Source of the DNA: Psammoneis japonica
Lineage: Eukaryota
Reading direction: 5' to 3'
DNA: 64,000 nucleotides
NCBI GenBank assembly: GCA_008632985.1
Contig: QPGO01000035.1
Span: 359,899 to 423,898, forward strand
This document shows positions 14,700-59,018 of the stretch, piece by piece (within the stretch, counting starts at the first letter, position 1; the number at the start of each line of letters is the position of its first letter). Both the position numbers and the translations under genes were made by a program. Below the pieces are notes generated by a model that worked only from the letters and a program-made list of their open reading frames with translations, did no database searches and was not told the origin of the DNA.

Positions 14700-14736
<37 letters not shown>

Positions 14737-27644: not shown

Positions 27645-27920
27645 TGACAGAAAATGAAGGCAAATGGCAAGAATTCAAACAACAACTCCTTGCTGCTGTC
27701 TAAATGGCAGATGAGTCTCCGCTCAGAGACCGTCACAGGAGCCGAAAGACGTGCAAGTCGGTGTGATCGGGCTGCTGTTGTTGTTCTTGTGAGCCTTGTG
27801 GCTCGAAAGCAAACTGCATCGCGCGTGAACGCGCGGAACTAAAGCACACAAAACTGTGCACGGTAAACTAAACAGCGCGCGATGCTTCGCGCGCACCCAA
27901 ATCCTGTTCAAATCCTGTCA
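27645..27920 (-). repeat. 3' LTR of copia copy 1
   Basis: Direct repeat of 34480-34755, adjacent to ctcccc (complement of the PPT). Confidence 0.97.
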
Positions 27921-30900
27921 CTCCCCAGTTTGCTTGAGGAGCCACAGAAACAGATTCGACTTCGGATGGAATGAAGTTCCAGAACATGAGGGGGCGGAGA
28001 AGGTCCCAGATTTGGGAGTGACCCCAATGCTTGCTGAGAATGTCAGCAGGGTTGCGGGAGCCTTCGATGAAGTGGAACTCAAGGCAACCAGAGGCAATTG
28101 CCTCACGCACACGGTGGAACGACAGTGCGGTGTGTCGCTTGTGTAACTTGGAGTGCGGGATGGTGGCACTGTCTACAACCGACTTGTTGTCACCGAACAT
28201 GTGACTAACGTTACGGATCGGGACGCCAAGGCAGCGCAGGGTGATGCGCAGGTCGACAATCTGCTCAACACAAGTCCTTGCGGCAACAAATTCAGACCCG
28301 CAGGTCGCAGTCTCCATGGTGGCTTGTTTCTTAGAGAACCAATCAGCCGGAAATTTGTTGAGGAAGTGGAGCATTCCCATGACAGAGCGTCCGGTGAGCA
28401 TGCAATGGTGCAAGTTTGCATCGACGTAGTGGGTGGCAGTGACGAACTTGCCAAGGGGCGGTGGAGCATCCTTCGGGATCATCTCTTCTGCTTCACCATG
28501 CACGGAATGCATCCATTCATAGGCTGGAGCAGGGAGATCCGAACAGTCGGGCTCTTCCGTGCGAACGCGGAGAGCACCGTGTCGCATCTTGGAGAGGCAC
28601 CCACAGACGCGTTTGGCACGATCCAAGTGGCCTTGACGGGGCGCAGCTCGGAAGCTGGAGAGTGACATGACGGCCGTGGCAATGTCAATTCGACCAAGGG
28701 ACACTGCCCATTGGAGTGAACCAACAAGAGACTGGAACTTGTGAATGCCATCGGGTCCCAGCAGTTCGGAAGTGTCCAGTTCGGGGTGGTCACCCTTCTC
28801 TAGAGGTGGCAGGGCGTTGGTGGCAGGTTTCTCCCCAAACAGTCGGGCATGGCTGTCGACCATGCGCTCGATGTACTTGCGCGGAGACAGGCACAAGGTT
28901 CCGTCGGGTTCCCGGGAAAAGTTGCAACCCAGATGGAACTCAATGGGTCCCGCACCCTTGAGCTTGAACTTGTGCTTTTCTGTGAGAGTGTCGACGAAAG
29001 ATTGAGGGTCCTTCATGGCAATGGCGAGGTCATCCACATAAACGGCAATGCATTCACAGTGGTCGCCGTTCCTGCGCATCCAAATGTCGGGTTCGGCGCG
29101 GCAGGGGAAGAAGCCTTCAGCTCGCAGGCAGTCGGCGAAGCGCTCGTGCCAGCGGAGACCGGAGCTGTGCAGTCCATGCAGTGCCTTGTGGATGACAAGG
29201 ATGTGTCCTTCGAGTTTGCCGAACTCGGGTCCAGCTACAATGTAAAGCTTCTCCTTGGTGGTGGCTTCAAGGCAGGCATTGCCAATGTCGGTGGCCCATG
29301 TCTCCAACTCGTTGAGTTCGGCCAGGAAAATCATCAGCCGAAGGCCACGGAGGGAGACTACTCCGGAGTGGACACTGTCGACAGGTACGTCCGTGAGGTG
29401 CCCGTCGGCTACGAGTCGTGCCTTGTGGCGACCGTCGTGTTTCACGTCGCACACTGGGTGCACTCGGATCTTCTTGTGTCCCGCAGGAGGAGTGGAAGAC
29501 TTGAAGGGCCCGCAGTCATGGAAGACTTCGTATTCGTCAAGTTGGTCCATCTCGAGATTAGTTGCGTCTCCCCACTTGCGGTTGCCGTTGCGTTCGTCTG
29601 GTGACATGGCGTGTTTGTAGTTCCGGGGAACTTCGTGTCCATGCTTGTAGCGAGGTGCAGTGCGGAAGGAGCGAAGCTTGGCTTGGTTGGCCATGCGAAA
29701 TAGCTTCTTTTGGCGCCTCGCGATGGTGCGGAACCGCTTCCAGCCATCCGTGTCGAGGAGTCCGTTCTCTCGTGCATAGATGGCACAGGTGACGGGGTCG
29801 TCCTTGGCGATGATGGCAAGAGGCTCAGACGTGATCTCCCCACTTTCCCATTCAAGCATGATGTTGCAGCTGGAGCCTTTCCAGGTTGGGTCGTGAGGCT
29901 TCAGAGGTCCTTCGTGTGACACGATGCGTCGAAATTTCCAAACAGTGGTGTCTTCGTCTTCTTGCTCAATGTGATTCATGATGTCATTGCAGGCAAGGAC
30001 TTCCTCGTATTCGTCATTGTTGACAGAGCAGACGAACTTAGTGAGCTCGGGATTGCCGTTCACTTTCCATTCGTGGTCTTCGACGGCCTTGACGATGCGA
30101 GCTCTGTGGCGTTGTCCGTCCTCTTGTGGCTGCATGAGGAAGGTACGTCCAATGATGTCTTGCGGATCGAAAACTGGCATCTTGGGTGTCCTGATCTCCC
30201 CATCAGGAGAGTCGACGGGGTTGTCGTCATGGCGAGATTTGATGATGGGTTCAGGTGGCTCCCCATCAGGAGGATCAAGACGCAGGTTTCGAACGGCAGG
30301 ATCGGGGGTAGCGGATCGGACGTTGGACCGGTGGAGGATCTTCTGAGTCTCGTCAGATAGAATCTTGAAGGTCATCTGGTGGCCGACGTGCTCAGCAATG
30401 CCAACGAAGCGTCCACGCAACTCACGGGATTCGGACGGCCAATCAGAGTCATCGAGGTGGAAGTGCACGGGTTCCCACCAGTGAAAGCGAAGCAATGGGC
30501 TGATGTCCGGGGTGGAGCCAGTGAGAGTCTCGAGGGGCGTGCGCCAGTGGAGACGTGGGGACGCTGCATGGTTGAGTGTGAAGCACATGCACATGAGCGC
30601 CAGCAGCCACGCATGGGCAGGCGAACCAAAACGATCCATGACAGTGTTCGCCATGTGCTTCACGGTCTGGCATCGATGCTCGGCAAAGTTTTGGTGTTGC
30701 TGGTGAGGCTCACTTTGCCAGCTGGAGATGAAGAGGGCGCGTAGGATCCCGAGCACTTTGTTGCTGATCTCAACTTGAGCACGGTCGCTAATGAGTTTGG
30801 ATGGGGCACCACGTTCACGGATCTGATCCTCGAGTGTGTTGACAAACTCTTTGTCCGTCTTAGTGCCGTAGACGTCAGTGACGGTAGACTCGGTGCCAAC

Positions 30901-33538
30901 AAACAGTTGGGCGCTGGTGCAACCAGAGTCGACGGCCGGGGTGTCGGCACAAACGGTGTCAGTGGCGATGGGCTCGTTGCGGCGGTGCACATTAAGGGCG
31001 GGGTTGGGTGATTTGTGGGCCTTGCGAAGGTGTGCACCGGCGGGCATGCGGGCGCACTGCGTGGTGCAGTCAAAAGTACGACGGACCGCATCGGCAGGTG
31101 GGAAGCCAAAGCAAGGCCGAAGAGACTCGAAGGGGGGGTCCTTGGGCTGTACAGTGCGCTCCGGAGGTGGAACGTCATCGCCCTGGGGGCCAATCGCGTG
31201 CAGATGACACTCGTAGAACACGTCGTCGTTCGGAATGAGGTGATCATCGAGGGCGGACGCGTGATCGGCAGACAAGGAAGCGGACATGATGGTCTCGTTG
31301 ACAACGACACGATGACGGCAGTTGCCGCATTCGTCAAATAGGTTGGCAGTGGGATCGTCCTGTGGGTCAGAGATCGCGTCGCACCACTGGTCGTTGTCAG
31401 TGACAGAGTGATCGAGGACGGAAGGGTCCCATGTGTCATCACCCAGTGAGGATGACATGGGGCAGGGTGTCCCATTCGGCGTCAGTGCAAGGTCGCATGG
31501 CAACACAAGGCAGGCCAGCCTTGATGTCAATGGGGATGACATGGCCATCAGGAGTGGCAATGCGTTGCAAGCCGTTGGGTGCCTTGACAGAGCGATCGTT
31601 GACATCCTGTTTGCACCATTCGAGCTGGCCGCAGGAATGGATGGTCTTGCCCTTGCCCGTGCATGCGCACTGATGGAGGATGGCGATGACGGGACCACGC
31701 TGGGTCTCAACAACGGCACCAGCGGTGACAATGGGGATGTCCACCAATTGATGATCGTCAATGCCCTGAACGTCGACTTGGCGAGAGGTGCGTGCAATGA
31801 CGCGAACGTCATCGCCAGCAATGCCGCCGTTGGCCCCACGATCGACTAGAGCGCCAGTGCGTGTGGAGCGATGAGCAGAGGCAGAGCAAATGACATTGTG
31901 GTTGTCAACGCGGCGGCAAGTGCGGCCGTCAAGTTCTGTGTCATCTGCAGAAGCTGGCGGGGTAGAGGAAGCGGCGGATGGCCCCGGTCGACTGGCATTG
32001 GGGGCTTGGTTAGGAGACAACAGACGTTGCAGATCACCGGGTGGCAGTGGCTTGCGCTTGGTGAGGTGCGCCAGGATGGGATTGTCCGAAGTGGCGTCCA
32101 CATGTGGAGCGGAGTCACCAGAGTCAGCAGGAGTCGTGTTGGACAAGTTGACATCACCGTCACTCCCAAGGCGTTGGTCGTGAAGGTTGGCCGTAACAGA
32201 CTCATGGCAGTTGCTGGCTCGCGGGTTGCGGGGAGGTGGACAAGAATGCTCAAGGATGATCGCCTTGGAGGAATCGGGCAACGAATCCCAGAGCCGTTGG
32301 TGGTCGGGAGGGAGACGTCTCCATTGGACACCGGTGAGGCTGGGACCGCGGGTGCAGGCAGCATTGGCTTGAAGGACGTCAACGTCGCTGTCAATGTCGC
32401 AGAACACATCGTCGGACGGTTCCTCGGAGCAGACGTCGTGTGCGTGTGTGGCGCGTCGGGGAGCTCGAGGTGTCGTCTTGGGTTGAAACGTGCTGTCGTA
32501 CTGAGCTGCCGCGGAGAGGAGCAAGCCACAGTGTTGATCGCATGTGAGGCTCTTGCCACTCTGCGTGCGATGCTGATCAGCTTGGTTCTTGACAGCACGG
32601 AGTTCCTCGACAGGGTGCACGGCATTCTCGAGCATGACGCGCTTCTGTCCTTCAGAGAAGTGGTCACTGGCCGGGATGAGTGCCTCGCACTTGCGCAACT
32701 GATCTTGCCAATGAAGGATGAACCCGTGGGTTGGACCTTTCCAAGTGCCATCACCAAGACGCGCGGTGGTGAGGTGCGTGAGCAGGGTGGAGGACTCGAT
32801 GGATGCGCGGGTGGAGGCAAGCGCGCACTCAGACAAGGAGCGGCAGACGGTCTGTGCGTCAGAAGATCCCACATTTTCGCGAATGAGAGCCTTGCCCTTG
32901 TCGGTGAGAAGGATGCGTTCGAAGACGGCGAACATGTGCTTTTGCTGTTCAGCAAAGAGCAGTTTGTCTTCAGGGCTGGTCGGTTTGTACGACGAGTCTA
33001 GAATGCACTCGACGTCTTGGGCACGGGCTTGTGCCACAAGTGAGGTGTGCCAAGTGTGCCACTGCTTGTCGGATTTGAGAGCCGTGAAAGCGGTGGGATC
33101 ACGCTTGATGCCTTGCTTGAAGTCCCGCACCGGGTCGCGTGCCTTGGTCGGGTTGGTGACATGTGGAGGTGCAAGGGGTGAGCTGCCGATGGACACAGAA
33201 GACATGCAGTCGGGGCTGAGGCGGCAGGCAAGGAACTCGTCATGCGTGAACAAAGAGGAGTCGTTGGCAACGTCAAGACCTTTGTGTGCTTTGACAATGT
33301 ACAGACTGACTGGTGCTGCTGACATGTTCTTATAACCACGGGGCAAAGGGATCACATCAGTGCCGTTGTCGCACTCAAGCGAGTCGATTTGGGACGGCAT
33401 GAACGTGAACAGTTCCTGATGCGAGTCCGTGCCGTCTTGGGCCAAAGCCAAACGAAGAGGACTCCCAGCACCTTGGGCAAGCACGGTTCCAACCACGTGC
33501 TCGAAACCATCGGTTTGTTGCTGACGAGTGAGAACCAT
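27868..33538 (-). pseudogene. gag-pol of copy 1, +1 frameshift near 31442-31445, many Tyr->Cys/His changes
   Basis: Reads actgggtgat versus gccggtgat in copy 2. PR LVDRGANGG, IN D..D..E region (TDTV, ISDRAQ, NFAE), RT DIGNACLEA and YVDD, RH NPADILSK. Confidence 0.9.
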
Positions 33539-34479
33539 GGCAGACAAAAGTGGTGTCAGGACAATCAATTCTGGTTGGGAAGCGAAGGTAGACTCGAAAC
33601 TTGGGTGAGAACAGACTTGACTTGAAATGGACTTGACTTGAAATCTTGAACCATCTTAAAATCAGAAGTCGCCGGGCTTTGTTGTCCCATTCGTTGTTGA
33701 GTGCTAAACTTCCCATCCGGTCCGCAGAGTTGTGCCGGCACGTCCGAACCCGCAGCTGGTGGCGCTTTGGGTTGCTTGCGAGCGGAGCAGCGGGTTGTGA
33801 GCCCCTGCAGGTGAGCTGACTGGAGGTGGACAAGACCCCCGAACCATTCTTATTTTATGTCGGTTGGATTTCCCGATCAGGCTGGCCAGTTGATGCAGGC
33901 GTTGGGCGCTGTGGACGAACGAACAAACGCGGGAAAGCACCCTCGCCCCAACGTAGACTGCAATCACGGCTGCCTGCTCTGTCAGTCGTCCTCGTGGACC
34001 TGGCAGAACTGCAGAGCACCAGCAGTCCGGGGTGGATCAGGTGCAATGGACTCGGTGTGCTTGTAGAGTGGCAGCAAAACCGTGGTCCGAAGAGTGGATA
34101 AAGGTTCTTGGCCGTGAAGACATGTGCACATGTGCACATGTCTTCAGCGACTAAGATCCTTGAATGTGCAGGGTTCTTGACCGTCAACCGAGGAATGGGC
34201 ACATCAAGGGATGTTGATCAAGGATGGACTTGGATGTGACCGTTGAGTGTGAGTCTTCAGTGATCAAAGGCAGTGTGATCAATCCAGACATCCAGCGGCA
34301 AGGAGACTTGACGGTGACGTTAACTTCCTGCCGATGCCCTGGTGTTGAATGCGCGTAGACTTGCCGATGTATGTAGAACACATGCGGAGGTCCACGCAGA
34401 ATTGAAGTGGCGTCGTTGGCAAATCAACGACGACGATGGCGGTTGCTCAATGGGTTGACAATGAGCAAGACTGTTAATC

Positions 34480-34755
34480 TGACAGAAAATGAAGGCAAAT
34501 GGCAAGAATTCAAACAACAACTCCTTGCTGCTGTCTAAATGGCAGATGAGTCTCCGCTCAGAGACCGTTGCAGGAGCCGAAAGACGTGCAAGTCGGCACA
34601 ATCGGGCTGCTGTTGTCATTCTTGTGAGCCTTGTGGCTCGAAAGCAAACTACATCGCGCGTGAACGCGCGGAACTAAAGCACACAAAACTGTGCACGGTA
34701 AACTAAACAGCGCGCGATGCTTCGCGCGCACCCAAATCCTGTTCAAATCCTGTCA
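34480..34755 (-). repeat. 5' LTR of copia copy 1
   Basis: Direct repeat of 27645-27920. Confidence 0.97.
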
Positions 34756-35320
34756 ACTTGGCTTGCTTTGGCTCGAAGTCAGATGAAGAGATTGGGTTGT
34801 GGGCTTGTCGTCAACCAGCCACCAGCATGAAATCTTTGCCAAAGGTCTGCAATCACCAGCCATGAGTGGTCAATGAAAAGGTGTGACGTGTGACTCAGTG
34901 CAGACCCAGTGATCAAAATGCCGCCATTGGACGCTGCAAGCCTCAGCCCCCCACACTTCACTCTTTTGTCGAAGGCTGGCTGGCTGGGTTTGGTGCAGGT
35001 TCAGCAGAAGCACCTTCATCAATGACACAAAAGCGTTTTGCAATGACTGTGCCACCACTGACTTTTTGGCATTGAGAAACCGTGTTGCTGGCGCAGCAAG
35101 GAAAAAGATCCAAGATCTGGAATAGTTTGGGAATTTGGAATCTGGAACTTTTGTACCGCAGATTGCGCGCCTTATGCGCCACCAAACCAAGACCAAAAAA
35201 CAAAGTGTGACTCAGCTTGAGATGACAGATGAATGATGAACGACACGACCACGCAGCACGCAGCACGGAGGCTCATCCCGCCTGATGTGTTCACATTTCG
35301 CTTTCTAGCTAGACGAAGCG

Positions 35321-37209
35321 ATGATTGTAAAGGCACGACACTTGCCGTTATTGTGTTTTACTCTTTTCTGCATGACGACTCGAGTGGTATATAGCATGAC
35401 CACCACCAAGACATCGACGAGTAGTAGTAGAGGACGTCTCGTGTTTCACTGGTTTCGCAATGGTGATTTGCGACTCCACGACAATCCGGCTCTGATACAT
35501 TCGGCCAAAAAGGGTGACGTGGTGGTGCCCATTTACTGCTTTGACGACCAAACCTTTTATGGTGCATCCAACAAGACGCCAATTGGAAGTTTGAAATGTG
35601 GTGCCAAGCGAGCGAAATTTATTCGCGAGAGTGTTTGTGATTTGAGACAGCAGTTGCAGAAACGAAAGAGTGATTTGGCGGTCGTTCAAGGAAATCCGGC
35701 TACCGTCTTCGATCAGATTTTATCCAAACTTGGTGATTCCAACATGGATGTGAGCATTTCGTGTCAAGAGGAAGTGCTCAAAGAAGAAAAGGACGCCGTA
35801 AAGTCAGTGCAGACAGTGTTGAAGAGGCATCGAAAGAAATCCAAGGTGGAGGAAATTTGGGGCTCTACCATGTATGACCTTAAAGACTTGCCGTACGAAG
35901 TTGGCCTTCAAGATATGCCCGATACCTTTACCCCGTTTCGAAACAAGGTGGAAAAGAAGTCGTCGATTGGTAGGGCTTTGCCACCTCCCAAGGGCTTGAA
36001 TCTTCCAGCTCCTGACTCTGTCGAATACAAGGCCATCGCCGAGTGCTTGTCAAACTCCATTCCAACTCTTGGTGAGTTAGGCTACACTGACGAGCAGGTG
36101 AAGCATGCCGAGATGTATGATGAAAGGGGTGTCATGAATTTCAAGGGCGGTGAAACTGCCGCTTTGGCGCGAGTCAAGGACTACATTTGGGACAAGGATC
36201 TTCTCAAAGTATACTTTGAAACAAGAAACGGCATGCTCGGAGCTGACTATTCCACAAAGTTCAGTCCCTGGCTTGCACACGGATGTCTATCTCCACGAGA
36301 AATAGTTAAAGAGTGTCAAAAATACGAGGAACAGCGGGTTGCTAACAAGTCTACGTACTGGGTAGTCTTCGAATTACTATGGCGGGACTTTTGCAAGTTC
36401 TTTTGCGTCAAGCATGGCGACACTGTCTTTTTTCCGGGTGGTACGGCAGGAAAAGACAAAAAGTGGTCCACCTATAAGCAAAATTTTGACGCGTGGACGG
36501 AGGGCAAGACAGGATATCCACTTGTGGACGCCAATATGCGTGAAATGAAAGCAACGGGTTTCATGTCAAATCGCGGTCGTCAAAATGTAGCTTCGTTTCT
36601 CGCGATCGATTTATCTCATGACTGGAGGATGGGTGAGTGCTAATTGTTTATTTATACGTCATTGACGAGACTGAAACTTACCTCGCTCTTCGCCTTCTCC
36701 AGGAGGTGACTGGTTTGAGAGCAACCTAATTGACTACGACGTCTATTCGAACTGGGTGGTAAGTAGGGATTCTTCTGAAGGACGACATTTAACTGTTTTG
36801 CCTATTCCAACTCACCTGATAACTTTGCTCTTCCCATTATAAGAATTGGTGTGCCGCAGCTGGCATGACGGGAGGACGCTTGAATCGATTCAACATTGTG
36901 AAGCAAAGCAAGGATTACGACCAGCATGGAGAATACGTGAGGCATTGGCTGCCAGAGCTGAAGAACGTACCAACTCAGTTTGTGCATGAGCCATGGAAAA
37001 TGAGCCAAGCCGACCAAGCCAAGTTTGGTGTCCGCCTTGGAGTGGATTATCCCCAACCAATCATTCCGCCGTTTCAACCCAAATACCAACAAGGTGGTGG
37101 GGGAGGAAGGAACAAGCAGCGAAAATCAAACAAGAATGGCAACCGCAACCGCCATCAGAAATATGAAATGAAAAGCTTGAAACAAGGTGGATATAAGGCC
37201 CAGAACTAA
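35321..37209 (+). CDS. Cryptochrome DASH (photolyase/cryptochrome family), 3 exons: 35321-36632, 36703-36758, 36844-37209
   Basis: WFRNGDLRLHDNPAL, YFETRNGMLGADYSTKFSPWLA, TGYPLVDANMRE..TGFMSNRGRQNVASFL. GT-AG splicing restores [25 protein letters not shown]. Confidence 0.93.
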
Positions 37210-37505
37210 TATCAAGCCTAAAGAAACAGACACTCTTGCTAAACCAAAATGCCACCTCTTACAGTGTTACAAAAATACTTTAGGTTGAGTTGGTAGGGCC
37301 TGAGCTAGAGAAATACCGTAGTACCTGCGGTGTCATCATGCTTATGTTCGTTTGGCAGTTTGAATTTCCAACAACAGTTTCCGTGCGTATCAACGTTCGT
37401 GTTATTTTCTTGAGCACAAACAACAAACAAACGATGAGGAAATGGGAATGAGGAAGCATACTTTCAACTTGCGCCGTCGCCCGTCGCGTCGTCTAATGCA
37501 TCAAA

Positions 37506-48280: not shown

Positions 48281-48683
48281 CACGGTACTCTCTGCGAAAA
48301 CGACTGCGCTAGTGTTAGCCGCTGCTTAGCTAGGATGGGAGCTTCCTATTGGCCACCAGACTTGCTACTGGTCTTTCCCTAGGGCCTGAGGAATATCTCC
48401 ATAACTTAGTTTATTCTTTGATTAAGAACACGGACGGATCAAAGTCTGGGATAGGAAGAGTATCCGTCGGTTTACGTCTCCATGGTACTCTCTGCGATAA
48501 CGACTGCGCTATTGTTAGCCGCTGCCTCGCTAAGTTGGAACCCTCCTATTGGTCACCAGACTTTCTACTTGTTCTTCCGTAAGGTCTGAGGAATATCTCC
48601 ATAACTTAGTTTATTCTTTTTCTAGAAACACAGACGGATCAAAGTCTGGGATAGGCGGCGTATCCGTCGGTATATGTCTCCAT
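48281..48683. repeat. 200-bp tandem duplication of the mL40 3' coding end and 3' flank
   Basis: 48281-48480 aligns without gaps to 48481-48680; gaggaatatctccataacttagtttattcttt occurs in both. Confidence 0.93.
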
Positions 48684-49117
48684 TTGGGTGGCCCTACTGC
48701 ATCGGTGCTGAGCGCCGCCTCGACAAGAGCCTTGTTGTTTCGTGGCAACATGTTTATGGCGTGCTGCTTGAGCTTCAATTTGCACGTCAAGTCATGATTC
48801 AATTCGTTATGACGATTGAACTTTCCAATCACGTAATTGCGTCCAATCTCGTGGCGTCGTTGCATTTCTTCGGGCGATGCCGGTGGCGGTTTGGTAACGG
48901 GCGCATCCAAGGCAGCCAAGATCAATTCCAAATTCTTGTCGCGGCCTCGCTGTTCTTGATTCGATCCGGACTTCTTTCCACTCTTTTTGACCTTTTGGGT
49001 CTTTTTAGCACCCTCGGAACTAAACGATTGGGCAAACACTGCAGGAAAAGCGTGGCGCTGGGGCTTGCTCCGTAATACCAACATGCCAACTGATCGTTGC
49101 AGCTGTGCAGTCGACAT
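48611..49117 (-). CDS. Probable mitochondrial ribosomal protein mL40
   Basis: Presequence-like N-terminus; EEMQRR....Y, KQHAINMLP...LVEAA, PP..R.IPTDTPPIPDF resemble the mL40 (MRP-L28) family. Confidence 0.7.
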   Translation of the reverse strand: MSTAQLQRSVGMLVLRSKPQRHAFPAVFAQSFSSEGAKKTQKVKKSGKKSGSNQEQRGRDKNLELILAALDAPVTKPPPASPEEMQRRHEIGRNYVIGKFNRHNELNHDLTCKLKLKQHAINMLPRNNKALVEAALSTDAVGPPKWRHIPTDTPPIPDFDPSVFLEKE

Positions 49118-50520
49118 GGCAATTTTATTCTGAGATTGGAAAATGGAAAATTCTAACGCTCCCGTCAACGTGACAGGCTTTATATTTGCACTGATAAACG
49201 AGGTGAATGGTGATCAATCGGAGAGAGTAGTAACGGCCGTTGCAACGTCCAACGACTCCAACATCATGGCGCTACTCTACTGTAGAGTAGTAGGAGTAGA
49301 TAAATACCGTAGACTCTCGCCCGTGTACCGTAGGCCTAGGTAGAGACTAGGGCCCTAATGTTTCTCGCTTGTCGCTCTGGGACTTCAGACTGATGACGCA
49401 CTGACGAAAAGAGTTTTGACGCGCGGCGCGCGCTCGCTGCGCGTGGCGCACGGACAGACCATCGGCAAACTGTTGAACGAAGCGAGCGACCGAGCGAACG
49501 TCATCTCTGATTCACGGCTCTGTTTACAAAAGACGGGGAGCCAACAATGTTGCCCCATTTGGCTGCCCTGATGGCCATGAGCACTTCATGTCAAGACTCG
49601 GACAAGTCTGTCTCGGAATCAAATTGTTGAATGTCGTGAATCCAGCACAATGTCGCCTCAATCTCTTGGCCGATTGCTGTTTTTTTGGGTGGAATTCAGC
49701 CGAATGGCTCTTGTTTTGCATCATTTTTCCTGAATTTCACTGTGAAAACAGCAAGCCACAAGTCTGTGATGGATGTGGCCTGTCTTCAAACTCTCGTTCA
49801 TTTTGTGCTCTCCTTGTGCATCAGCAAAGACATTGCGCACATCAACAGTTTGAAGACGGCAAGCCAGGTTCTTGAGAAATGTCAATGATTGTTGTCATTG
49901 TCATGCTTTGATCACAGTGCATGATGTTTTTGCTTTCATGCACAATCAGCGATTGGGTGTGAACAACAAAAACGGTTTTTGCATTGAAAAAAAAACAGAC
50001 AATGATGGCTTGTTCCAGACTTGCGGCAGGTGTGCTCACGCACAAAAAAATGACCCTTTTTGCATGGCATGTGTGGCACATGGGTCACTGCATGGCCGAC
50101 TTTTGTTTCTGACTCACCAGAACAACAATTCTCTCCTGCTGGCATGCGCGCGGACACCGTGTGCAGAGGAACACGCAGGGTGAGTGCGAAACTGGAAAAC
50201 GGCCATCACTTGCACAGAAAAACACATCACAACAGCAACAAGAGAGCACTGTGAGCATGACCAGGTTTTTTGGGAGGTGACATCTCAACAAATTTTCCTC
50301 CAGCCAATTTTCTCACTTCTTGTTTTGTTTCTTCACACGTTTGTCTGACAAGGAATGACGCTTGCTTGGCTTCATTGCACGTCACGGGACTTCTTGTCAC
50401 TGGAGAAATCACTTTTGAAAGCTCACTTGAGTTGGATTTTTCAAGTGGATCAAGTTTGTTGAGCAATGCAGTGGGCTTGCATCATCAGTTTTTGGCTGAT
50501 TTTCCTGTTTGTTGTTTTAA

Positions 50521-50975
50521 CACAGCATCCACGGATTCACCAGGCAAAATTGGCAAAAGTCGGGCATGGCAACAAAAAGTGTGCATTTGGTCAAAATCGA
50601 TCATCGAGTGCAAATGGTGGCATCTTTAGGGTCCCTTTAGTGAGCCAAACTCACACATTTCTCATTTGACCATCATGGGTCTGTCTCATGACTGAAGGGT
50701 GTCAAAACGTTGTGCTTTGACACGTCTCGAGGATCAAACGTCATGCAGTGCACTCAGCTGTTGAGGTTGCACAAAATTGAAAATTCACACATTAAAGCAC
50801 GGCAGTTTGACACCCCCTGCAAGACGGACCTGTGATTGTCAGATGAGAAATGTGCATGTTTGGCTCACTGAAGGGACCCCAAAGATGCTGCCACCTGCAC
50901 TCAATGATCAACTTCAACCAAATGCACACTTTTTGCCATGCCTGGGTGTTGCCTGGTGAATCCGTGGATGTGGTG
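50521..50975. mobile_element. MITE-like foldback element with about 200-bp TIRs and TTAA TSD (piggyBac-type target site)
   Basis: ttaa at 50517-50520 and 50976-50979. Arm cac..catccacggattcaccaggcaa pairs with ttgcctggtgaatccgtggatg..gtg; spacer about 70 bp. Confidence 0.85.
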
Positions 50976-51905
50976 TTAAAAAATTTGGTGTTCATTTCAT
51001 CTTTCTTAAGGTGCAGTGGGTGTGGGAATTGTCAAATCAGCCATTCCATGTTCTGGGCTGAAGATTTGGACTTTGAATGAACGCAGATTTGATTCACTTG
51101 ATTTGGACTGGGTGAGCGTGATCACTGCGCTGCAGTTTGAGCCTCAATTTTTGACCAATTTTCTCAGTTCTTGTTTTGCTCTGCTTGCTCATTTGACATG
51201 GATTGTGACAGGCTTGGTTTTGTTCAGAGTCCTCAGACATCAGACTTGTCTCCAGTGGTGTCATTTTGAAAGTTCACTGAGTTAGATCTCAAGTTGAGCA
51301 GTTTGTCAAGTGATGCAGTGGGCTTGCATCATCATCAGTTTTCAGCCAATTTTCCCATTTCTTGTTTTGAAGTTGGCTTGTGTTTTGTCTTTGAGGTGCT
51401 GAGGTGTGGCAATTGTTGAGCTGTTCATTCCACGTTAAAGATGTGGAAGTGGGGTGTGTTTGAATTTGATGAGTTGGCGGGAAACAATCCAGACTGGGTT
51501 GGAGGCTGTGGCATCACCATCTGGTGCAGCTGCAACAAATTCAAGTGTTTGATTGATTCAATGCACTGATGTGCATGTCCTTGTCTGCCTGGGCAACATT
51601 GTGTGGAGTGTCATGGAACCAGCATGAAAAACACACACATTCAATCTCACCTGTGTTGATGGCTTCACAAACAATGCTTCTTTCTCTTCAACACCTCCAC
51701 AAATGGAGATGGCTTCTGCTTGGCTTCCTCCTTGCAAACAGCGCTCATTTCCTTGATGACAGTGGCCGCTGCCTTCTCTGGATTTGCCTCAGCTTGCAAT
51801 TTGATTGCATCCACAACTTTCTTGATTCTTGAGAAGTGCTGTGAGTCTTCCCCATCAAACCCCTTCCACCATGTGTGTTTGCAATCACACTCCATCCTCT
51901 TCAAC

Positions 51906-52181
51906 TGACAGGATTTGAACAGGATTTAGGTGCGCGCGAAGTGTCGCGCGCTGTTTAGTTTACCGTGCACAGTTTTGTGTGCTTTAGTTCCGCGCGTTCA
52001 CGCGCGATGTAGTTTGCTTTCGAGCCACAAGGCTCACAAGAATAACAACAGTAGCCCGATTATACCGACTCACACGTCTTTCGGCTCCTGTAACGGTCTC
52101 TGAGCGGAGACTCATCTGCTATTTAGACAGCAGTAAGGAGTTATTGTTTGAATTCTTGCCATTTGCCTTCAATTTCTGTCA
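51906..52181 (+). repeat. 5' LTR of copia copy 2 (retains the most TA sites of the four LTRs)
   Basis: TG...CA, 276 bp, direct repeat of 58737-59013. Confidence 0.97.
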
Positions 52182-52198
52182 GATTAACAGTCTTGCTC
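52182..52198 (+). promoter_or_regulatory. Putative primer-binding site, non-TGG (also at 34463-34479 on the minus strand)
   Basis: gattaacagtcttgctc lies directly after the 5' LTR. Its complement GACTGTTAATC resembles a tRNA-Asn(GTT) anticodon arm. Confidence 0.55.
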
Positions 52199-53119
52199 AT
52201 TGTCAACCCATTGAGCAACCGCCATCGTCGTCGTTGATTTACCAACGACGCTATTTTAATTCTACGTGGACCTCCGTATATATTCTACATACATCGGCAA
52301 GTCTACGCGCATTCAATACCAGGGCATCGGCAGGAAGTTAACGTCACCGTCAAGTCTCCTTACCGCTGGATATCTGGATTGATTATACTACCTTTGATCG
52401 CTGAAGACATACATTCAACGGTCATATCCAAGTCTATCCTTGATCCTCATCCCTTGACATACCTATTCATCGGTTAACGGTCAAGAACCCTACATATTCA
52501 AGGATCTTCGTCGCTGAAGACACACATATATATACACATCTTCACGGCCAAGAACCTGTACCCACTCTTCGGACTGCGGTTTTGCTGCCACTCTACAAGC
52601 ACACCGAGTCCAATGTACCTGATCTACCCCGGACTGCTGGTGCTCTACAGTTCCACTAGGTCCACGAGGACGACTGTGAGAGCAAGCAGCCGTGATCACA
52701 GCCTGCGTTGGGGCGAGGGTGCTTTCCCGCGTTTGTTCGTTCGTCCACAGCGCCTGGCGCCTACGTCAACTGGCCAGCCTGATCGGGAAATCCAACCGAT
52801 GTAAAACAAGAACGGTTCGGGGGTCTTGTCCACCTCTGGTCAGCTCACCTGCAGGGGTTTGCAACCCGCCACTCCGCTCGCAAGCAACCCAAAGCGCCGC
52901 CAGCTGCGGGTTCGGACGTGCCGGCACAACTCTACGGACCGGATGGGAAGTTAGCACTTGACAACGAACGGGACAACAAAGCCCGGCGACTTCTGATTTT
53001 AAGATGGTTCAAGATTTCAAGTCAAGTCTGTTTCAAGTCAAGTCTGTTCTCACCCAAGTTTCGAGTCTACCTTCGCTTCCCAACCAGAGTTGATTGTCCT
53101 GACACCATTTTTGTCCACC

Positions 53120-56100
53120 ATGGTTCTCACTCGTCAGCAACAAACCGATGGTTTCGAGCACGTGGTTGGAACCGTGCTTGCCCAAGGTGCTGGGAGTCCT
53201 CTTCGTTTGGCTTTGGCCCAAGACGGCACGGACTCACATCAGGAACTGTTGACGTTCATGCCGTCCCAAATCGACTCGCTTGAGCACGACAACGGCACTG
53301 ATGTGATCCCTTTGCCCTGTGGTTACAAGAACATGTCAGCAGCACCAGTCAGTCTGTGCATTGTCAAAGCACACAAAGGTCTTGACGTTGCCAACGACTC
53401 CTCTTTGTTCACGCATGACGAGTTCCTTGCCTGCCGCCTCAGCCCCGACTGCATGTCTTCTGTGTCCATTGGCAGCTCACCCCTTGCACCTCCACATGTC
53501 ACCAACCCGACCAAGGCACGCGACCCGGTGCGGGACTTCAAGCGAGGCATCAAGCGTGATCCCACCGCTTTCACGGCTCTCAAATCCGACAAGCAGTGGC
53601 ACACTTGGCACACCTCACTTGTGGCACAAGCCCATGCCCAAGACGTCGAGTGCATTCTAGACTCGTCGTACAAACCGACCAGCCCCGAAGACAAACTGCT
53701 CTTTGCTGAACAGCAAAAGCACATGTTCGCCATCTTCGAACGCATCCTTCTCACCGACAAGGGCAAGGCTCTCATTCGCGAAAATGTGGGGTCTTCTGAT
53801 GCACAGACCGTCTGCCGCTCCTTGTCTGAGTGCGCGCTTGCCTCCACCCGCGCATCTGTCGAGTCCTCCACCCTGCTCACGTGCCTCACCACCGCGCGTC
53901 TTGGTGATGGCACTTGGAAAGGTCCGACCCACGGGTTCATCCTTCATTGGCAAGATCAGTTGCGCAAGTGCGAGGCACTCATCCCGGCCAGTGACCACTT
54001 CTCTGAAGGACAGAAGCGCGTCATGCTCGAGAATGCCGTGCACCCTGTCGAGGAACTCCGTGCTGTCAAGAACCAAGCTGATCAGCATCGCACGCAGAGT
54101 GGCAAGAGCCTCACATGCGATCAATGCTGTGGCTTGCTCCTCTCCGCGGCAGCTCAGCACGACAGCACGTTTCAACCCAAGACGACACCTCGAGCTCCCC
54201 GACGCGCCACATGCGCACACGACGTCTGCTCCGAGGAACCGTCCGACGATGTGTTCTGCGACATTGACAGCGACGTTGACGTCCTTCAAGCCAATGCTGC
54301 CTGCACCCGCGGTCCCAGCCTCACCGGTGTCCAATGGAGACGTCTCCCTCCCGACCACCAACGGCTCTGGGATTCGTTGCCCGATTCCTCCAAGGCGATC
54401 ATCCTTGAGCATTCTCGTCCACCTCCCCGCAACCCGCGAGCCAGCAACTGCCATGAGTCTGTTACGGCCAACCTTCACAACCAACGCCTTGGGAGTGACG
54501 GTGATGTCCACTTGTCCAACACGACTCCTGCTGACTCTGGTGACTCTGCCCCACATGTGGACGCCACTTCGGACAATCCCATCCTGGCGCACCTCACCAA
54601 GCGCAAGCCACTGCCACCCGGTGATCTGCAACGTCTGTTGTCTCCTAACCAAGCCCCCAATGCCAGTCGACCGGGGCCATCCGCCGCTTCCTCTACCCCG
54701 CCAGCTTCTGCAGATGACACAGAACTTAACGGCCGCACTTGCCGCCGCGTTGACAACCACAATGTCATTTGCTCTGCCTCTGCTCATCGATCCACACGCA
54801 CTGGCGCTCTAGTCGATCGTGGGGCCAACGGCGGCATTGCTGGCGACGACGTTCGCGTCATTGCACGCACCTCTCGCCAAGTCGACGTTCAGGGCATTGA
54901 CGATCATCAATTGGTGGACATCCCCATTGTCACCGCTGGTGCCGTCATTGAGACCCAGCGTGGTCCCGTCATCGCCATCCTCCATCAGTGCGCGTGCACG
55001 GGAAAGGGCAAGACCATCCATTCCTGCGGCCAGCTCGAATGGTGCAAACAGGATGTCAACGATCGCTCTGTCAAGGTGCCCAACGGCTTGCAACGCACCG
55101 CCACTCCTGATGGCCATGTCATCCCCATTGACATCAAGGCTGGCCTGCCTCATGTTGCCATGCGACCTTGCACTGACGCCGAATGGGACACCCTGCCCCA
55201 TGTCATCCTCGCCGGTGATGACACATGGGACCCTTCCGTCCTCGATCACTCTGTCACTGACGACGACCAGTGGCACGACGCGATCTCTGACCTGCAGGAC
55301 GATCCCACTGCCAACCTGTTTGACGAATGCGGCAACTACCGTCATCGTGTCGTTGTCAACGAGACCATCTTGTCCGCTTCCTTGTCTGCCGATCACGCGT
55401 CCGCCCTCGATGATCACCTCATTCCGAACGACGACGTGTTCTACGAGTGTCATCTGCATGCGATTGCCCCCCAGGGCGATGACGTTCCACCTCCGGAGCG
55501 CACTGTACAGCCCAAGGACCCCCCCTTCGAGTCTCTTCGGCCTTGCTTTGGCTTCCCACCTGCCGATGCGGTCCGTCGTGCTTTTGACTGCACCACGCAG
55601 CACGCCCGCATGCCCGCCGGTACACACCTTCGCAAGGCCTGCAAATCACCCAACCCCGCCCTTAATGTGCACCGCCGCAACGAGCCTGTCGCCACTGACA
55701 CCGTTTGTGCCGACACCCCGGCCGTCGACTCTGGTTGCACCAGCGCCCAACTGTTTGTTGGCACCGAGTCTACCGTCACTGACGTCTACGGCACTAAGAC
55801 GGACAAAGAGTTTGTCAACACACTCGAGGATCAGATCTGTGCACGTGGTGCCCCATCCAAACTCATTGGCGACCGTGCTCAAGTTGAGATCAGCAACAAA
55901 GTGCTCGGGATCCTGCGCGCCCTCTTCATCTCTAGCTGGCAAAGTGAGCCTCACCAGCAACACCAAAACTTTGCCGAGCGTCGACACCAGACCGTGAAGC
56001 GCATGGCGAACACTGTCATGGATCGTTTTGGTTCGCCCGCCCACACATGGCTGCTGGCGCTCATGTGCGTGTGCTTCATGCTCAACCATGCAGCGTCCCC

Positions 56101-58789
56101 ACGTCTCCACTGGCGCACGCCCCTCGAGACTCTCACTGGCTCCACCCCGGACATCAGCCCATTGCTTCGCTTTCACTGGTGGGAACCCGTGTGCTTCCAC
56201 CTCGATGACTCCGATTGGCCGTCTGAATCCCGTGAGTTGCGTGGACGCTTCGTTGGCATTGCTGAGCATGTCGGCCACCAGATGACCTTCAAGATTCTAT
56301 CTGACGAGACTCAGAAGATCCTCCACCGGTCCAACGTCCGCTCCGCTGCCCCCGATCCTGCCGTTCGAAACCTGCGTCTTGATCCTCCTGATGGGGAGCC
56401 ACCTGAACCCATCATCAAATCTCGCCATGACGACAACCCCGTCGACTCTCCTGATGGGGAGATCAGGACACCCAAGATGCCAGTTTTCGATCCGCAAGAC
56501 ATCATTGGACGTACCTTCCTCATGCAGCCACAAGAGGACGGACAACGCCACAGAGCTCGCATCGTCAAGGCCGTCGAAGACCACGAATGGAAAGTGAACG
56601 GCAATCCCGAGCTCACTAAGTTCGTCTGCTCTGTCAACAATGACGAATACGAGGAAGTCCTTGCCTGCAATGACATCATGAATCACATTGAGCAAGAAGA
56701 CGAAGACACCACTGTTTGGAAATTTCGACGCATCGTGTCACACGAAGGACCTCTGAAGCCTCACGACCCAACCTGGAAAGGCTCCAGCTACAACATCATG
56801 CTTGAATGGGAAAGTGGGGAGATCACGTCCGAGCCTCTTGCCATCATCGCCAAGGACGACCCCGTCACCTGTGCCATCTATGCACGAGAGAACGGACTCC
56901 TCGACACGGATGGCTGGAAGCGGTTCCGCACCATCGCGAGGCGCCAAAAGAAGCCATTTCGCATGGCCAACCAAGCCAAGCTTCGCTCCTTCCGCACTGC
57001 ACCCCGCTACAAGTGTGGACACGAAGTTCCCCGCAACTGCAAACACGCCATGTCACTAGACGAACGCAACGGCAACCGCAAGTGGGGAGACGCAACCAAT
57101 CTCGAGATGGACCAACTCGACGAATACGAAGTCTTCCATGACTGCGGGCCCTTCAAGTCTTCCACTCCTCCTGCGGGACACAAGAAGATCCGAGTGCACC
57201 CAGTGTACGATGTGAAACACGACGGTCGCCACAAGGCACGACTCGTAGCTGACGGGCACCTCACGGACGTACCTGTCGACAGTGTCCACTCCGGAGTAGT
57301 CTCCCTCCGTGGCCTTCGGCTGATGATTTTCCTGGCCGAACTCAACGAGTTGGAGACATGGGCCACCGACATTGGCAATGCCTACCTTGAAGCCACCACC
57401 AAGGAGAAGCTTTACATTGTGGCTGGACCCGAGTTCGGCAAACTCGAAGGACACATCCTTGTCATCCACAAGGCACTGTGTGGACTGCGCAGCTCCGGTC
57501 TCCGCTGGCACGAGCGCTTCGCCGACTGCCTGCGAGCTGAAGGCTTCTTCCCCTGCTGCACCGAACCCGACATTTGGATGCGCAGGAACGGCGACCACTG
57601 TGAACACATTGCCGTTTATGTGGATGACCTCGCCATTGCCATGAAGGACCCTCAATCTTTCGTTGACACTCTCACGGAAAAGCACAAGTTCAAGCTCAAG
57701 GGTGCGGGACCCATTGAGTTCCATCTGGGTTGCGACTTTTCCCGGGAACCCGACGGAACCTTGTGCCTGTCTCCGCGCAAGTACATCGAGCGCATGGTCG
57801 ACAGCTGTGCCCGACTGTTTGGGGAGAAACCCACCACCAACGCCCTGTCACCTCTAGAGAAGGGTGACCACCCCGAACTGGACACTTCCGAACTGCTGGG
57901 ACCCGATGGCATTCACAAGTTCCAGTCTCTTGTTGGTTCACTCCAATGGGCAGTGTCTCTTGGTCGAATTGACATTGCCACGGCCGTCATGTCACTCTCT
58001 AGCTTCCGAGCTGCGCCCCGTCAAGGCCACTTGGATCGTGCCAAACGCGTCTGTGGGTGCCTCTCCAAGATGCGACACGGTGCTCTCCGCGTTCGTACGG
58101 AAGAGCCCGACCATTCGGATCTCCCTGCTCCGGCCTGTGAATGGATGCATTCCGTGTGTGGTGAAGCAGAAGAGATGATCCCGAAGGACGCTCCACCGCC
58201 CCTTGGCAAGTTCGTCACTACCACCCACTGCGTCGATGCAAACTTGCACCATTGCATGCTCACCGGACGCTCTGTCATGGGAATGCTCCACTTCCTCAAC
58301 AAATTCCCGGCTGATTGGTTCTCTAAGAAACAAGCCACCGTGGAGACTGCGACCTGCGGGTCTGAATTTGTTGCCGCAAGGACTTGTGTTGAGCAGATTG
58401 TCGACCTGCGCATCACCCTGCGCCACCTTGGCGTCCCGATCCGCAATGTTAGTTACATGTTCGGTGACAACAAGTCGGTTGTAGACAGTGCCACCATCCT
58501 GCACTCCAAGTTACACAAGCGACACACCGCACTGTCGTTCCACCGTGTGCATGAGGCAATTGCCTCTGGTTGCCTTGAGTTCCACTTCATCGAAGGCTCC
58601 CGCAACCCTGCTGACATTCTCAGCAAGCATTGGGGTCACTCCCAAATCTGGGACCTTCTCCGCCCCCTCATGTTCTGGAACTTCATTCCATCCGAAGTCG
58701 AATCTGTTTCTGTGGCTCCTCAAGCAAACTGGGGAGTGACAGGATTTGAACAGGATTTGGGTGCGCGCGAAGCATCGCGCGCTGTTTAG
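53120..58789 (+). CDS. Copia gag-pol polyprotein, open but Tyr-depleted; activity doubtful
   Basis: Uninterrupted ORF from MVLTRQ. PR LVDRGANGG, integrase, RT DIGNAYLEA and YVDD, RNase H. Motifs altered to KALCGL, ETATCGSEF, THCVDA. Confidence 0.9.
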   Translation: MVLTRQQQTDGFEHVVGTVLAQGAGSPLRLALAQDGTDSHQELLTFMPSQIDSLEHDNGTDVIPLPCGYKNMSAAPVSLCIVKAHKGLDVANDSSLFTHDEFLACRLSPDCMSSVSIGSSPLAPPHVTNPTKARDPVRDFKRGIKRDPTAFTALKSDKQWHTWHTSLVAQAHAQDVECILDSSYKPTSPEDKLLFAEQQKHMFAIFERILLTDKGKALIRENVGSSDAQTVCRSLSECALASTRASVESSTLLTCLTTARLGDGTWKGPTHGFILHWQDQLRKCEALIPASDHFSEGQKRVMLENAVHPVEELRAVKNQADQHRTQSGKSLTCDQCCGLLLSAAAQHDSTFQPKTTPRAPRRATCAHDVCSEEPSDDVFCDIDSDVDVLQANAACTRGPSLTGVQWRRLPPDHQRLWDSLPDSSKAIILEHSRPPPRNPRASNCHESVTANLHNQRLGSDGDVHLSNTTPADSGDSAPHVDATSDNPILAHLTKRKPLPPGDLQRLLSPNQAPNASRPGPSAASSTPPASADDTELNGRTCRRVDNHNVICSASAHRSTRTGALVDRGANGGIAGDDVRVIARTSRQVDVQGIDDHQLVDIPIVTAGAVIETQRGPVIAILHQCACTGKGKTIHSCGQLEWCKQDVNDRSVKVPNGLQRTATPDGHVIPIDIKAGLPHVAMRPCTDAEWDTLPHVILAGDDTWDPSVLDHSVTDDDQWHDAISDLQDDPTANLFDECGNYRHRVVVNETILSASLSADHASALDDHLIPNDDVFYECHLHAIAPQGDDVPPPERTVQPKDPPFESLRPCFGFPPADAVRRAFDCTTQHARMPAGTHLRKACKSPNPALNVHRRNEPVATDTVCADTPAVDSGCTSAQLFVGTESTVTDVYGTKTDKEFVNTLEDQICARGAPSKLIGDRAQVEISNKVLGILRALFISSWQSEPHQQHQNFAERRHQTVKRMANTVMDRFGSPAHTWLLALMCVCFMLNHAASPRLHWRTPLETLTGSTPDISPLLRFHWWEPVCFHLDDSDWPSESRELRGRFVGIAEHVGHQMTFKILSDETQKILHRSNVRSAAPDPAVRNLRLDPPDGEPPEPIIKSRHDDNPVDSPDGEIRTPKMPVFDPQDIIGRTFLMQPQEDGQRHRARIVKAVEDHEWKVNGNPELTKFVCSVNNDEYEEVLACNDIMNHIEQEDEDTTVWKFRRIVSHEGPLKPHDPTWKGSSYNIMLEWESGEITSEPLAIIAKDDPVTCAIYARENGLLDTDGWKRFRTIARRQKKPFRMANQAKLRSFRTAPRYKCGHEVPRNCKHAMSLDERNGNRKWGDATNLEMDQLDEYEVFHDCGPFKSSTPPAGHKKIRVHPVYDVKHDGRHKARLVADGHLTDVPVDSVHSGVVSLRGLRLMIFLAELNELETWATDIGNAYLEATTKEKLYIVAGPEFGKLEGHILVIHKALCGLRSSGLRWHERFADCLRAEGFFPCCTEPDIWMRRNGDHCEHIAVYVDDLAIAMKDPQSFVDTLTEKHKFKLKGAGPIEFHLGCDFSREPDGTLCLSPRKYIERMVDSCARLFGEKPTTNALSPLEKGDHPELDTSELLGPDGIHKFQSLVGSLQWAVSLGRIDIATAVMSLSSFRAAPRQGHLDRAKRVCGCLSKMRHGALRVRTEEPDHSDLPAPACEWMHSVCGEAEEMIPKDAPPPLGKFVTTTHCVDANLHHCMLTGRSVMGMLHFLNKFPADWFSKKQATVETATCGSEFVAARTCVEQIVDLRITLRHLGVPIRNVSYMFGDNKSVVDSATILHSKLHKRHTALSFHRVHEAIASGCLEFHFIEGSRNPADILSKHWGHSQIWDLLRPLMFWNFIPSEVESVSVAPQANWGVTGFEQDLGAREASRAV
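58731..58736 (+). promoter_or_regulatory. Short polypurine tract before the 3' LTR
   Basis: ggggag immediately precedes tgacagg; the same holds in copy 1 and the 12.6-kb relic. Confidence 0.7.
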
Positions 58790-59013
58790 TTTGACCGTGC
58801 ACAGTTTTGTGTGCTTTAGTTCCGCGCGTTCACGCGCGATGTAGTTTGCTTTCGAGCCACAAGGCTCACAAGAACAACAACAGTAGCCCGATCACACCGA
58901 CTCACACGTCTTTCGGCTCCTGTGACAGTCTCTGAGCGGAGACTCATCTGCCATTTAGACAGCAGCAAGGAGTTGTTGTTTGAATTCTTGCCATTTGCCT
59001 TCAATTTCTGTCA
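58737..59013 (+). repeat. 3' LTR of copia copy 2
   Basis: Direct repeat of 51906-52181 with a 1-nt insertion. Confidence 0.97.
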
Positions 59014-59018
59014 TCAAC

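Follow-up and report, generated by a model that had tools for sequence, protein, structure and literature searches.

Hypermutation of foreign DNA from AT to GC opposes the near-universal bias from GC to AT, and was unknown before a 2026 preprint on the alga Bigelowiella natans (Mettrop et al., bioRxiv 10.64898/2026.01.13.699255). According to the available text of that preprint, 231 of the 302 de novo mutations in its mutation-accumulation lines fell in integrated regions of nucleocytoplasmic large DNA virus (NCLDV) and virophage origin; of these 231, a single one was something other than A>G or T>C, and every A>G or T>C change sat on TpA. In the affected lines, which were only some of those studied, mutation ran at about 6e-7 per site per generation, or 1000 times the background. 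The same text describes clustered 1-kb windows low in TpA and high in CpA+TpG, an enrichment of reverse transcriptase (RT) and DDE domains among low-TpA coding sequences, and an ADAT2 homologue as the proposed candidate enzyme (10.64898/2026.01.13.699255). Diatoms are not mentioned in the available text of the preprint, and literature searches returned no report of such hypermutation for diatoms or other stramenopiles. Here, the same TpA-only signature is described from a second, distant lineage, in a 64,000-nucleotide stretch of the diatom Psammoneis japonica (GenBank assembly GCA_008632985.1, contig QPGO01000035.1, positions 359,899 to 423,898), hereafter the window, which carries two full Ty1/Copia long terminal repeat (LTR) retrotransposons. 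The initial annotation of the window, made from its letters alone, had proposed that A changes to G at TpA on either strand, after integration and within repeat domains, and had known of no description of such a system; this last statement has been overtaken by the preprint.

The two Copia elements, which carry the RVT_2 domain, are 96.5% identical across 7116 bp, have LTRs of 276-277 bp, and are flanked by their own 5-bp target-site duplications (ACTTG for copy 1 and TCAAC for copy 2). Copy 1 occupies 27645-34755 on the reverse strand (3' LTR 27645-27920, 5' LTR 34480-34755, RVT_2 E 1.9e-25), and its open reading frame (ORF) is broken by a 1-base indel. Copy 2 occupies 51906-59013 on the forward strand (5' LTR 51906-52181, 3' LTR 58737-59013, RVT_2 E 7e-27) and holds an uninterrupted frame of 1928 codons at 53003-58789. 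The differences that the initial annotation reported between the two LTRs of copy 2 were found as listed: eight sites have TA in the 5' LTR and TG or CA in the 3' LTR, and the remainder consists of one CG/TG site, one TG/CA pair and one indel. The pair thus differs by 11 substitutions and one indel, and no substitution lies outside pyrimidine-purine (YpR) dinucleotides. Likewise, the LTR pair of copy 1 differs by nine substitutions at five dinucleotide sites (TG versus CA at four, TG versus TA at one), with none outside YpR. The sites said to exist in several states across the four LTRs (TA/TG/CA at two places and TATA/TGTG/CACA at another) are also present. These differences within single elements fit the proposal that the changes took place after integration.

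Aligned along their full length, the two copies differ at 246 of 7112 columns, by 221 transitions, 20 transversions and 5 gap columns, and YpR dinucleotides hold 204 of the 221 transition differences. The dinucleotide state pairs between copies 1 and 2 are TA/TG 38, TA/CA 33, TG/CA 42, CG/TG 25, CG/CA 24 and CG/TA 0. The specificity for TpA over other contexts is borne out by the base that precedes the change, as A/G differences number 38 after a fixed T, in addition to the 42 doubly differing sites, and only 4 after A or G (two or three of them after A); the 24 found after a fixed C are polarised as CG>CA, at 18:1. Both strands are affected alike, with 80 TG and 74 CA events. Strand-coordinated clusters of the APOBEC or RIP (repeat-induced point mutation) kind were sought between the two copies; same-strand neighbours made up 39 of 95 and 29 of 58 pairs, and the permutation tests were non-significant. 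The pattern is one of many independent single hits, with no processive run along one exposed strand.

Two copies alone give no polarity, and environmental homologues were therefore used. These were 120 polyprotein homologues of 59-72% identity, and a column was taken as conserved when 80 or more homologues covered it and 70% or more of these had the same residue, which gave 883 columns, 47 of them Tyr. The Tyr content of the homologues is 2.86-4.52% (median 3.85) versus 0.8% in copy 2, whereas Cys reaches 3.1% in copy 2 versus 0.95%, and His 4.9% versus 3.5%. Conserved Tyr is retained at 12 of 47 columns in copy 2 and at 11 of 47 in copy 1. The replacements in copies 2 and 1, respectively, are Cys (TGY, where Y is a pyrimidine) at 20 and 18 columns and His (CAY) at 10 and 13, with Phe at four and Trp at one. 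The control residues are largely retained (Arg 59/64, His 32/33, Cys 6/7, Trp 23/25, Gln 23/24), and no change from Cys or His to Tyr occurs in either copy among the 883 conserved columns. The two copies are split between TGY and CAY at 11 Tyr columns and have the identical replacement at 16.

The differing YpR sites were further scored over the whole ORF by asking which candidate ancestor encodes the residue of the homologues. For the 27 sites that are TG in one copy and CA in the other, a TA ancestor is favoured at 21 and a CG ancestor at 2, while 2 are weak and 2 have no data. Among the 27 sites with TA in one copy and a mutant state in the other, 9 are synonymous, 16 favour the TA ancestor, none favours the mutant, 1 is weak and 1 has no data; TA is thus favoured at 16 of the 17 informative single-step sites. 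The 43 sites with CG versus a mutant state comprise 23 synonymous ones, 18 favouring a CG ancestor, 1 favouring the mutant and 1 with no data. The homologue polarisation and the loss of Tyr together imply that the polarity TA>TG/CA is correct, and a reading of RIP or of 5-methylcytosine (5mC) decay backwards is rejected. The claimed change of A to G at TpA on either strand accordingly stands (TA ancestral 16:0 and 21:2; 80 TG versus 74 CA). Two processes thus share one sink, namely TA>TG/CA and CG>TG/CA.

Older elements in the window carry the same marks. Copy c3 (12596-15612, reverse strand) is an internally deleted Copia element of a related family, with 75% DNA identity to copies 1 and 2, in which the decay is complete at both TA (15 observed versus 193 expected, observed/expected ratio (O/E) 0.08) and CG (O/E 0.19). 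None of its 14 conserved Tyr is retained (Cys 4, His 6), and Arg is retained at 3 of 18 columns (His 6, Cys 5). The distant Copia remnant c4 (618-2181, forward strand; tblastn identity 23-33%) retains none of 6 conserved Tyr, four of which are Cys. The catalytic motif YVDD has become HVDN in c3 and CVND in c4. The LTR pair of c3 (12596-12860 and 15361-15630) differs by 47 transitions, 25 transversions and 45 gap columns and includes 14 CA/TG pairs, several of which sit at the CGCGCG run of the young LTR; such pairs in old copies therefore come from CG too, besides TA.

In the young copies, the visible TA losses amount to 154 of 325 copy-sites (47%), the CG losses to 49 of 1068 (4.6%), and all other substitutions to 37 per approximately 14,200 copy-sites (0.26%). 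As a comparative estimate from counts and not a measured rate, TA loss thus runs at about 200 times the background and about 10 times the CG loss of the same copies. The hazard depends on the base 3' of the A, being 0.46 for T, 0.42 for C, 0.23 for G and 0.16 for A (likelihood-ratio statistic 22.3, 3 degrees of freedom). The next base after the TAs that survive in the old domains is A in 122, G in 55, C in 30 and T in 11 cases, and after genic TAs it is A, G, C and T in 377, 343, 454 and 474; the contexts of the survivors are an independent confirmation of the preference for a pyrimidine 3' of A.

Composition divides the window into sharply bounded domains. Seven depleted stretches have a CG O/E of 0.08-0.50 and a TG+CA O/E of 1.6-1.9, and three genic stretches have a TA O/E of 0.58-0.61, CG of 0.89-1.06 and TG+CA of 1.14-1.27. 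Counted in 250-bp steps, TA drops at the domain edges at 8000 (12 before the edge, 0 after it) and 49500 (15, then 1) and rises at 60750 (0, then 15), and for the depleted stretches no shuffle comes near the observed TA counts. Old depleted DNA extends over 1-5500 (TA 18 observed versus 353 expected, O/E 0.05; CG 35/333; TG+CA O/E 1.88) and over 8001-27644, inside which c3 lies (TA O/E 0.04-0.09, CG 0.08-0.23). Within the latter, 8001-12595 has TA 29/320 (0.09), and 15613-27644 has 34/788 (0.04), where the minimum across 200 shuffles is 716. A short depleted stretch (34756-35250; TA 3/32, O/E 0.09; CG 15/30) joins copy 1 to a photolyase gene. Copy 2 is flanked on the left by 49501-51905 (TA 9/178, O/E 0.05; CG 45/123) and on the right by 59014-60750 (TA 4/113, O/E 0.04; CG 18/103), which is depleted at single-copy read depth. 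The intervening genic DNA at 35251-49500 is of normal composition and serves as an internal control (TA 592/998, O/E 0.59; CG 801/790, O/E 1.01). This sharp-edged map fits the proposed confinement to repeat domains.

The young copies are intermediate, with CG O/E still at 0.91-0.92 and TA O/E already at 0.18-0.20, the first kilobase of copy 2 excepted. Copy 1 has a TA O/E of 0.20 and a CG O/E of 0.91; the body and 3' LTR of copy 2 (52904-59013) have TA 52/282 (O/E 0.18) and CG 447/486, and its 5' LTR and leader (51906-52903) are little mutated (TA 52 observed versus 61 expected, O/E 0.85). As CG is near-intact where TA is depleted, the loss of TA runs well ahead of the loss of CG. In the end state, about 95% of TA and about 65-90% of CG are lost, both into TG/CA. 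The G+C content of the Copia copies lies above that of their surroundings.

These observations are probably best explained by a targeted hypermutation of silenced repeat DNA in this diatom, in which the A of TpA is changed to G on either strand. The change runs from TA to TG/CA, is restricted to TpA, falls equally on both strands, stops at domain limits and occurs more readily when a pyrimidine follows the A. That integrated copies are its substrate is shown by LTR pairs that differ only at YpR and by the depletion of flanks outside the elements, one of which is at single-copy read depth. In the proposed mechanism, adenine would be deaminated to hypoxanthine at TpA in silent chromatin, and G would be read at the next replication. 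The agent may be a DNA adenine deaminase, most plausibly of the TadA/ADAT fold; this fold is favoured because its natural substrate, A34 of tRNA, is always preceded by U33. Diatom transposable elements (TEs) are reported to be CpG-methylated, and the enzyme would be recruited by the silent-chromatin state that also carries this methylation. The process would be the one that was measured directly in the mutation-accumulation lines of B. natans.

Among the alternatives, the one that survives best, unlikely as it is, places the lesion on the thymine: a TET/JBP-type enzyme, for example, would oxidise or otherwise modify the T of TpA, and faulty repair or pairing of that base would then give T>C. 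On a palindromic TpA, T>C on one strand is indistinguishable from A>G on the other. The excision of a modified T should leave transversions, which make up only 20 of the 241 substitutions between copies 1 and 2, although this argument is a weak one.

Slightly less probable is an A-to-I editing of the element RNA by an ADAR/ADAT-type enzyme before reverse transcription, fixed by retrotransposition. Part of the Tyr loss is common to both copies (the 16 columns of identical replacement) and could be inherited in this way. However, the two LTRs of a single insertion are unlike at TA-derived sites, only TG, and not 80 TG versus 74 CA, would result if the sense RNA were edited, and the flanks outside the elements are depleted, with one stretch at single-copy depth. 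ADAR prefers G as the 3' neighbour, whereas the hazard before G is 0.23, below the 0.42-0.46 before C and T. RNA adenosine deaminases do favour a 5' U, but the target in B. natans is single-copy, transcriptionally silent integrated DNA, as far as the available text of the preprint describes both (10.64898/2026.01.13.699255).

A sequencing or polishing artefact, whereby modified bases of heterochromatin are miscalled and real TA and CG are written as TG/CA, was weighed against reads. Contigs from four sequencing runs were compared with 44001-64000. The contigs labelled X1 (up to 5.5 kb, k-mer depth approximately 58-70) are free of differences from both the genic DNA and the depleted flanks. For example, those at 49745-50554 and 50951-51930 in the left flank of copy 2 show 0 differences, and so does the contig at 59396-60144 in the right flank, at a depth of 60. 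Such clean contigs need reads that are accurate at modified bases, which makes a base-calling artefact unlikely, and the contigs of the flanks give no TA where the assembly has TG or CA, the outcome that the initial annotation had named as refuting; zero differences are not expected from noisy long reads. The Copia family accounts for 12,940 X1 contigs with a summed depth of approximately 70,000-127,000, versus about 58 for unique DNA, a sum that shows high repetition only and is not a copy number. Relative to copy 2, the places of family variation are A>G 62, T>C 59, C>T 52, G>A 39 and transversions 30. Out of the 35 best-supported places in copy 2, 8 are TA in copy 2 and TG/CA in 23-100% of the family depth, 7 are CA/TG in copy 2 and TA in 24-96% of the depth, and 7 are TG/CA in copy 2 and CG in 92-100% of the depth. 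The whole Copia family is polymorphic at TA/TG/CA/CG steps.

In favour of the artefact, the platform is not on record, the reads are of one sample that may be the source of the assembly, and the polarity drawn from homologues is blind to the difference between miscall and mutation. Against this, TA, TG and CA variants of the family coexist at high depth at the same sites, and a symmetric modification would yield conflicting calls on the two strands and not clean contigs. Sequencing-by-synthesis keeps base identity at 5mC and at N6-methyladenine. Moreover, Illumina data of B. natans contain these changes as heritable mutations, according to the available text of the preprint (10.64898/2026.01.13.699255). 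An artefact is thus very unlikely.

Equally improbable is patch repair by a Pol-eta-like polymerase, which would make WA>WG errors (W being A or T) after being triggered by T:G mismatches from 5mC deamination, a mechanism that the initial annotation had also listed. The losses of TA and CG share their domains, and Pol eta produces A>G errors at TA. However, WA includes ApA, which is untouched here, with two or three A/G differences after A compared with 38 after T and 42 double sites. The loss of TA is about 10 times that of CG in the young copies, so that the supposed trigger would be rarer than its effect, and no strand-coordinated patches occur. Finally, the idea that C>T mutation (RIP at CpA, or 5mC deamination with a second hit) makes TA and that the direction is misread retains next to no credibility: the TA/TG/CA differences are symmetric with two copies only, the CG>TG/CA decay is real here (18:1, and a CG O/E of 0.08-0.37 in old domains) and some CA/TG pairs of the old c3 LTRs derive from CG, but the changes at conserved Tyr codons are losses without a single gain, the polarised sites favour TA as the ancestor at 16:0 and 21:2, the oldest repeats are nearly free of TA (O/E 0.04) and not enriched in it, the G+C of Copia exceeds that of its surroundings, and two hits at one CG site would have to be assumed for each of the 42 TG/CA pairs, when some 95% of CG sites are otherwise intact.

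Several observations weigh against a targeted hypermutation of silenced repeats, or complicate it. When the five columns with Phe or Trp in both copies are excluded, the remaining 42 Tyr columns are lost in both copies at 27, in one at 7 and in neither at 8; this shared loss exceeds independence, and some of it may have taken place in transposing source copies and some in place. Similarly, the two 3' LTRs agree in outcome at all 8 LTR sites, which is improbable under independent, unbiased hits, and for which the bias of the 3' neighbour is a partial explanation. The first kilobase of copy 2 (51906-52903) is mostly spared, with TA still present at 39 sites that are TG or CA in copy 1, while the homologous part of copy 1 is depleted; protection by an active promoter and recombination with an unmutated copy are possibilities. 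The old domains hold no recognisable TE protein except the Copia remnants in a Pfam scan of long ORFs, and their status as repeats rests only on internal repeats and on a raised depth at 49337-51337. The four sequencing runs share one sample and one study, may be the data of the assembly itself, and are of a platform that is not on record. The deaminase step is one that we infer.

The environmental relatives belong among these opposing points. Across 79 related Copia loci in metagenomes, the TA O/E ranges from 0.27 to 1.15, and the signature is found in one of the 79, L031, while Tyr>Cys is at most 3 in every other. This environmental contig of 2759 bp has a TA O/E of 0.31, Tyr>Cys at 14 and Tyr>His at 6 of 40 columns, and 75% of Arg kept; its source may be a further diatom in which this process operates. 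Locus L076, which has the lowest TA O/E (0.27), was considered as a second case and rejected, as it is free of Tyr>Cys (Tyr>Cys 0 and Tyr>His 4 of 29). Within the limit of this search, which used conserved-peptide patterns that heavily mutated copies may escape, the process is not general among diatom Copia elements, or is rarely captured.

The genes of the host lie in the stretch of normal composition between the two copies. They include an ORF for a CRY-DASH-type photolyase (35309-36643), whose top named match is Mayamaea (67%), followed by Nitzschia, Seminavis, Cylindrotheca and Phaeodactylum, a phosphoinositide phosphatase with a SacI domain in two exons (37497-39587), and a Gly_transf_sug glycosyltransferase (42256-43359). 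These genes place the window among the nuclear sequences of raphid pennate diatoms. In the approximately 29 kb of old domains, a Pfam scan of the 66 ORFs of at least 120 aa gave none above threshold. A depleted flank holds a sub-threshold match to NDC10_II at 60022-60429 on the reverse strand (E 0.0094, 15.5 bits versus a cut-off of 26.3), possibly a decayed protein of a mobile element or a chance match.

Two short tandem repeats are also present in genic DNA, one of 189 bp (63014-63586; three copies, 94-97% alike) and the other of 200 bp (48281-48680; two copies, 86%). The copies of both differ by mixed substitutions, including transversions, without TA loss; these repeats are short and their history is unrecorded. 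With regard to duplication as the trigger, the short genic tandem repeats are unaffected, a depleted flank is at single-copy depth, and the 5' LTR of copy 2 is largely spared despite being no less repeated than the 3' LTR.

A change of TA to TG/CA cannot make stop codons, and the elements are therefore recoded, from Tyr to Cys or His, and not truncated. About three quarters of the conserved Tyr are replaced and no stops are made, so that the open 1928-codon frame of copy 2 is no sign of activity; Tyr-poor, Cys/His-rich open 'polyproteins' need not be active. Since TA-free DNA is without TAA and TAG stops, many long false ORFs arise on both strands. Copies 1 and 2 have overlapping ORFs of 383 aa on opposite strands, again without a Pfam hit, and such ORFs are a trap for gene prediction. 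The dating of insertions by LTR divergence would greatly overestimate their ages.

A wider proposal can be offered tentatively, and with more doubt than confidence. Diatoms and chlorarachniophytes may possibly have in common an ancient chromatin-targeted defence, in which a DNA adenine deaminase would edit TpA in silenced mobile or viral DNA; it would be dominant on the repeats of this diatom and act by recoding and by stripping TA-containing regulatory motifs. The second lineage makes the process a candidate widespread defence of SAR (stramenopile, alveolate and rhizarian) eukaryotes. If such a shared pathway exists, it would be the first case in nature of A-to-G editing of DNA at a defined dinucleotide, and a natural TpA-specific DNA adenine editor would be of interest to base editing. 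The enzyme may be traced through deaminases that are shared by both signature-bearing algae and absent from signature-free diatoms.

Among the known systems, APOBEC3 resembles the process described here in hypermutating retroelements, in the manner of a deaminase, with clusters of transitions left behind in the integrated copies. It acts, however, on cytosine in the minus-strand cDNA before integration, with strand-biased G>A, in animals, whereas the present changes are at adenine, post-integration and strand-symmetric. ADAT2/ADAT3, including the mRNA editing in the sexual stage of filamentous fungi, and the hyper-editing of repeat RNA by ADAR share the A>G change with a 5' U or T, but their substrates are RNA, of one strand, and heritable only via reverse transcription, while here both DNA strands of integrated copies are affected. 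The decay of CpG by 5mC deamination likewise has a palindromic target, a TG/CA product and silenced repeats as its substrate. As read from the sequence, it would be a slower companion process here (CG>TG/CA 18:1, Arg to His/Cys in c3), and it differs in hitting the C of CpG, in being unable to remove TA, and in being about 10 times slower in the young copies.

RIP of Neurospora and other fungi is alike in being a transition-only hypermutation in a dinucleotide context that marks repeats and leaves a domain-structured ratio signature. RIP changes C to T at CpA and makes TpA and AT-rich DNA, whereas the changes here destroy TpA and raise G+C; stop codons arise through RIP but cannot do so through the process here. 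RIP hits one strand per event, in runs, whereas neighbouring events here are without strand coordination. Genic tandem repeats of 189-200 bp also escape here.

The closest likeness is with B. natans. The exclusive A>G/T>C change, the restriction to TpA, the outcome of TpG or CpA according to strand, and the silent or foreign nature of the integrated DNA are common to both, as are a long-term depletion of TpA with a gain of CpA+TpG and rates far above background, the approximately 200-fold here being called of the same order as the 1000-fold there (10.64898/2026.01.13.699255, in its available text). The host there is a rhizarian and here a stramenopile. An NCLDV insert of 186 kb and a virophage of 25 kb are the proven targets described there, and those found here are LTR retrotransposons; the Rho TpA reported for the NCLDV region is 0.45, compared with 0.04-0.09 here, with edges sharp to 250 bp. 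The main text of the preprint, as available, gives no coupling to CpG decay and no preference for the 3' neighbour, both of which are found here, and the mutations that were caught de novo there are deduced by comparison here. The present locus thus adds another eukaryotic lineage, LTR retrotransposons as targets, a near-complete erasure with sharp edges, a tenfold lead over the co-occurring decay of CpG, a preference for the T-A-Y context, and a read-out at the protein level in the replacement of Tyr by Cys or His.

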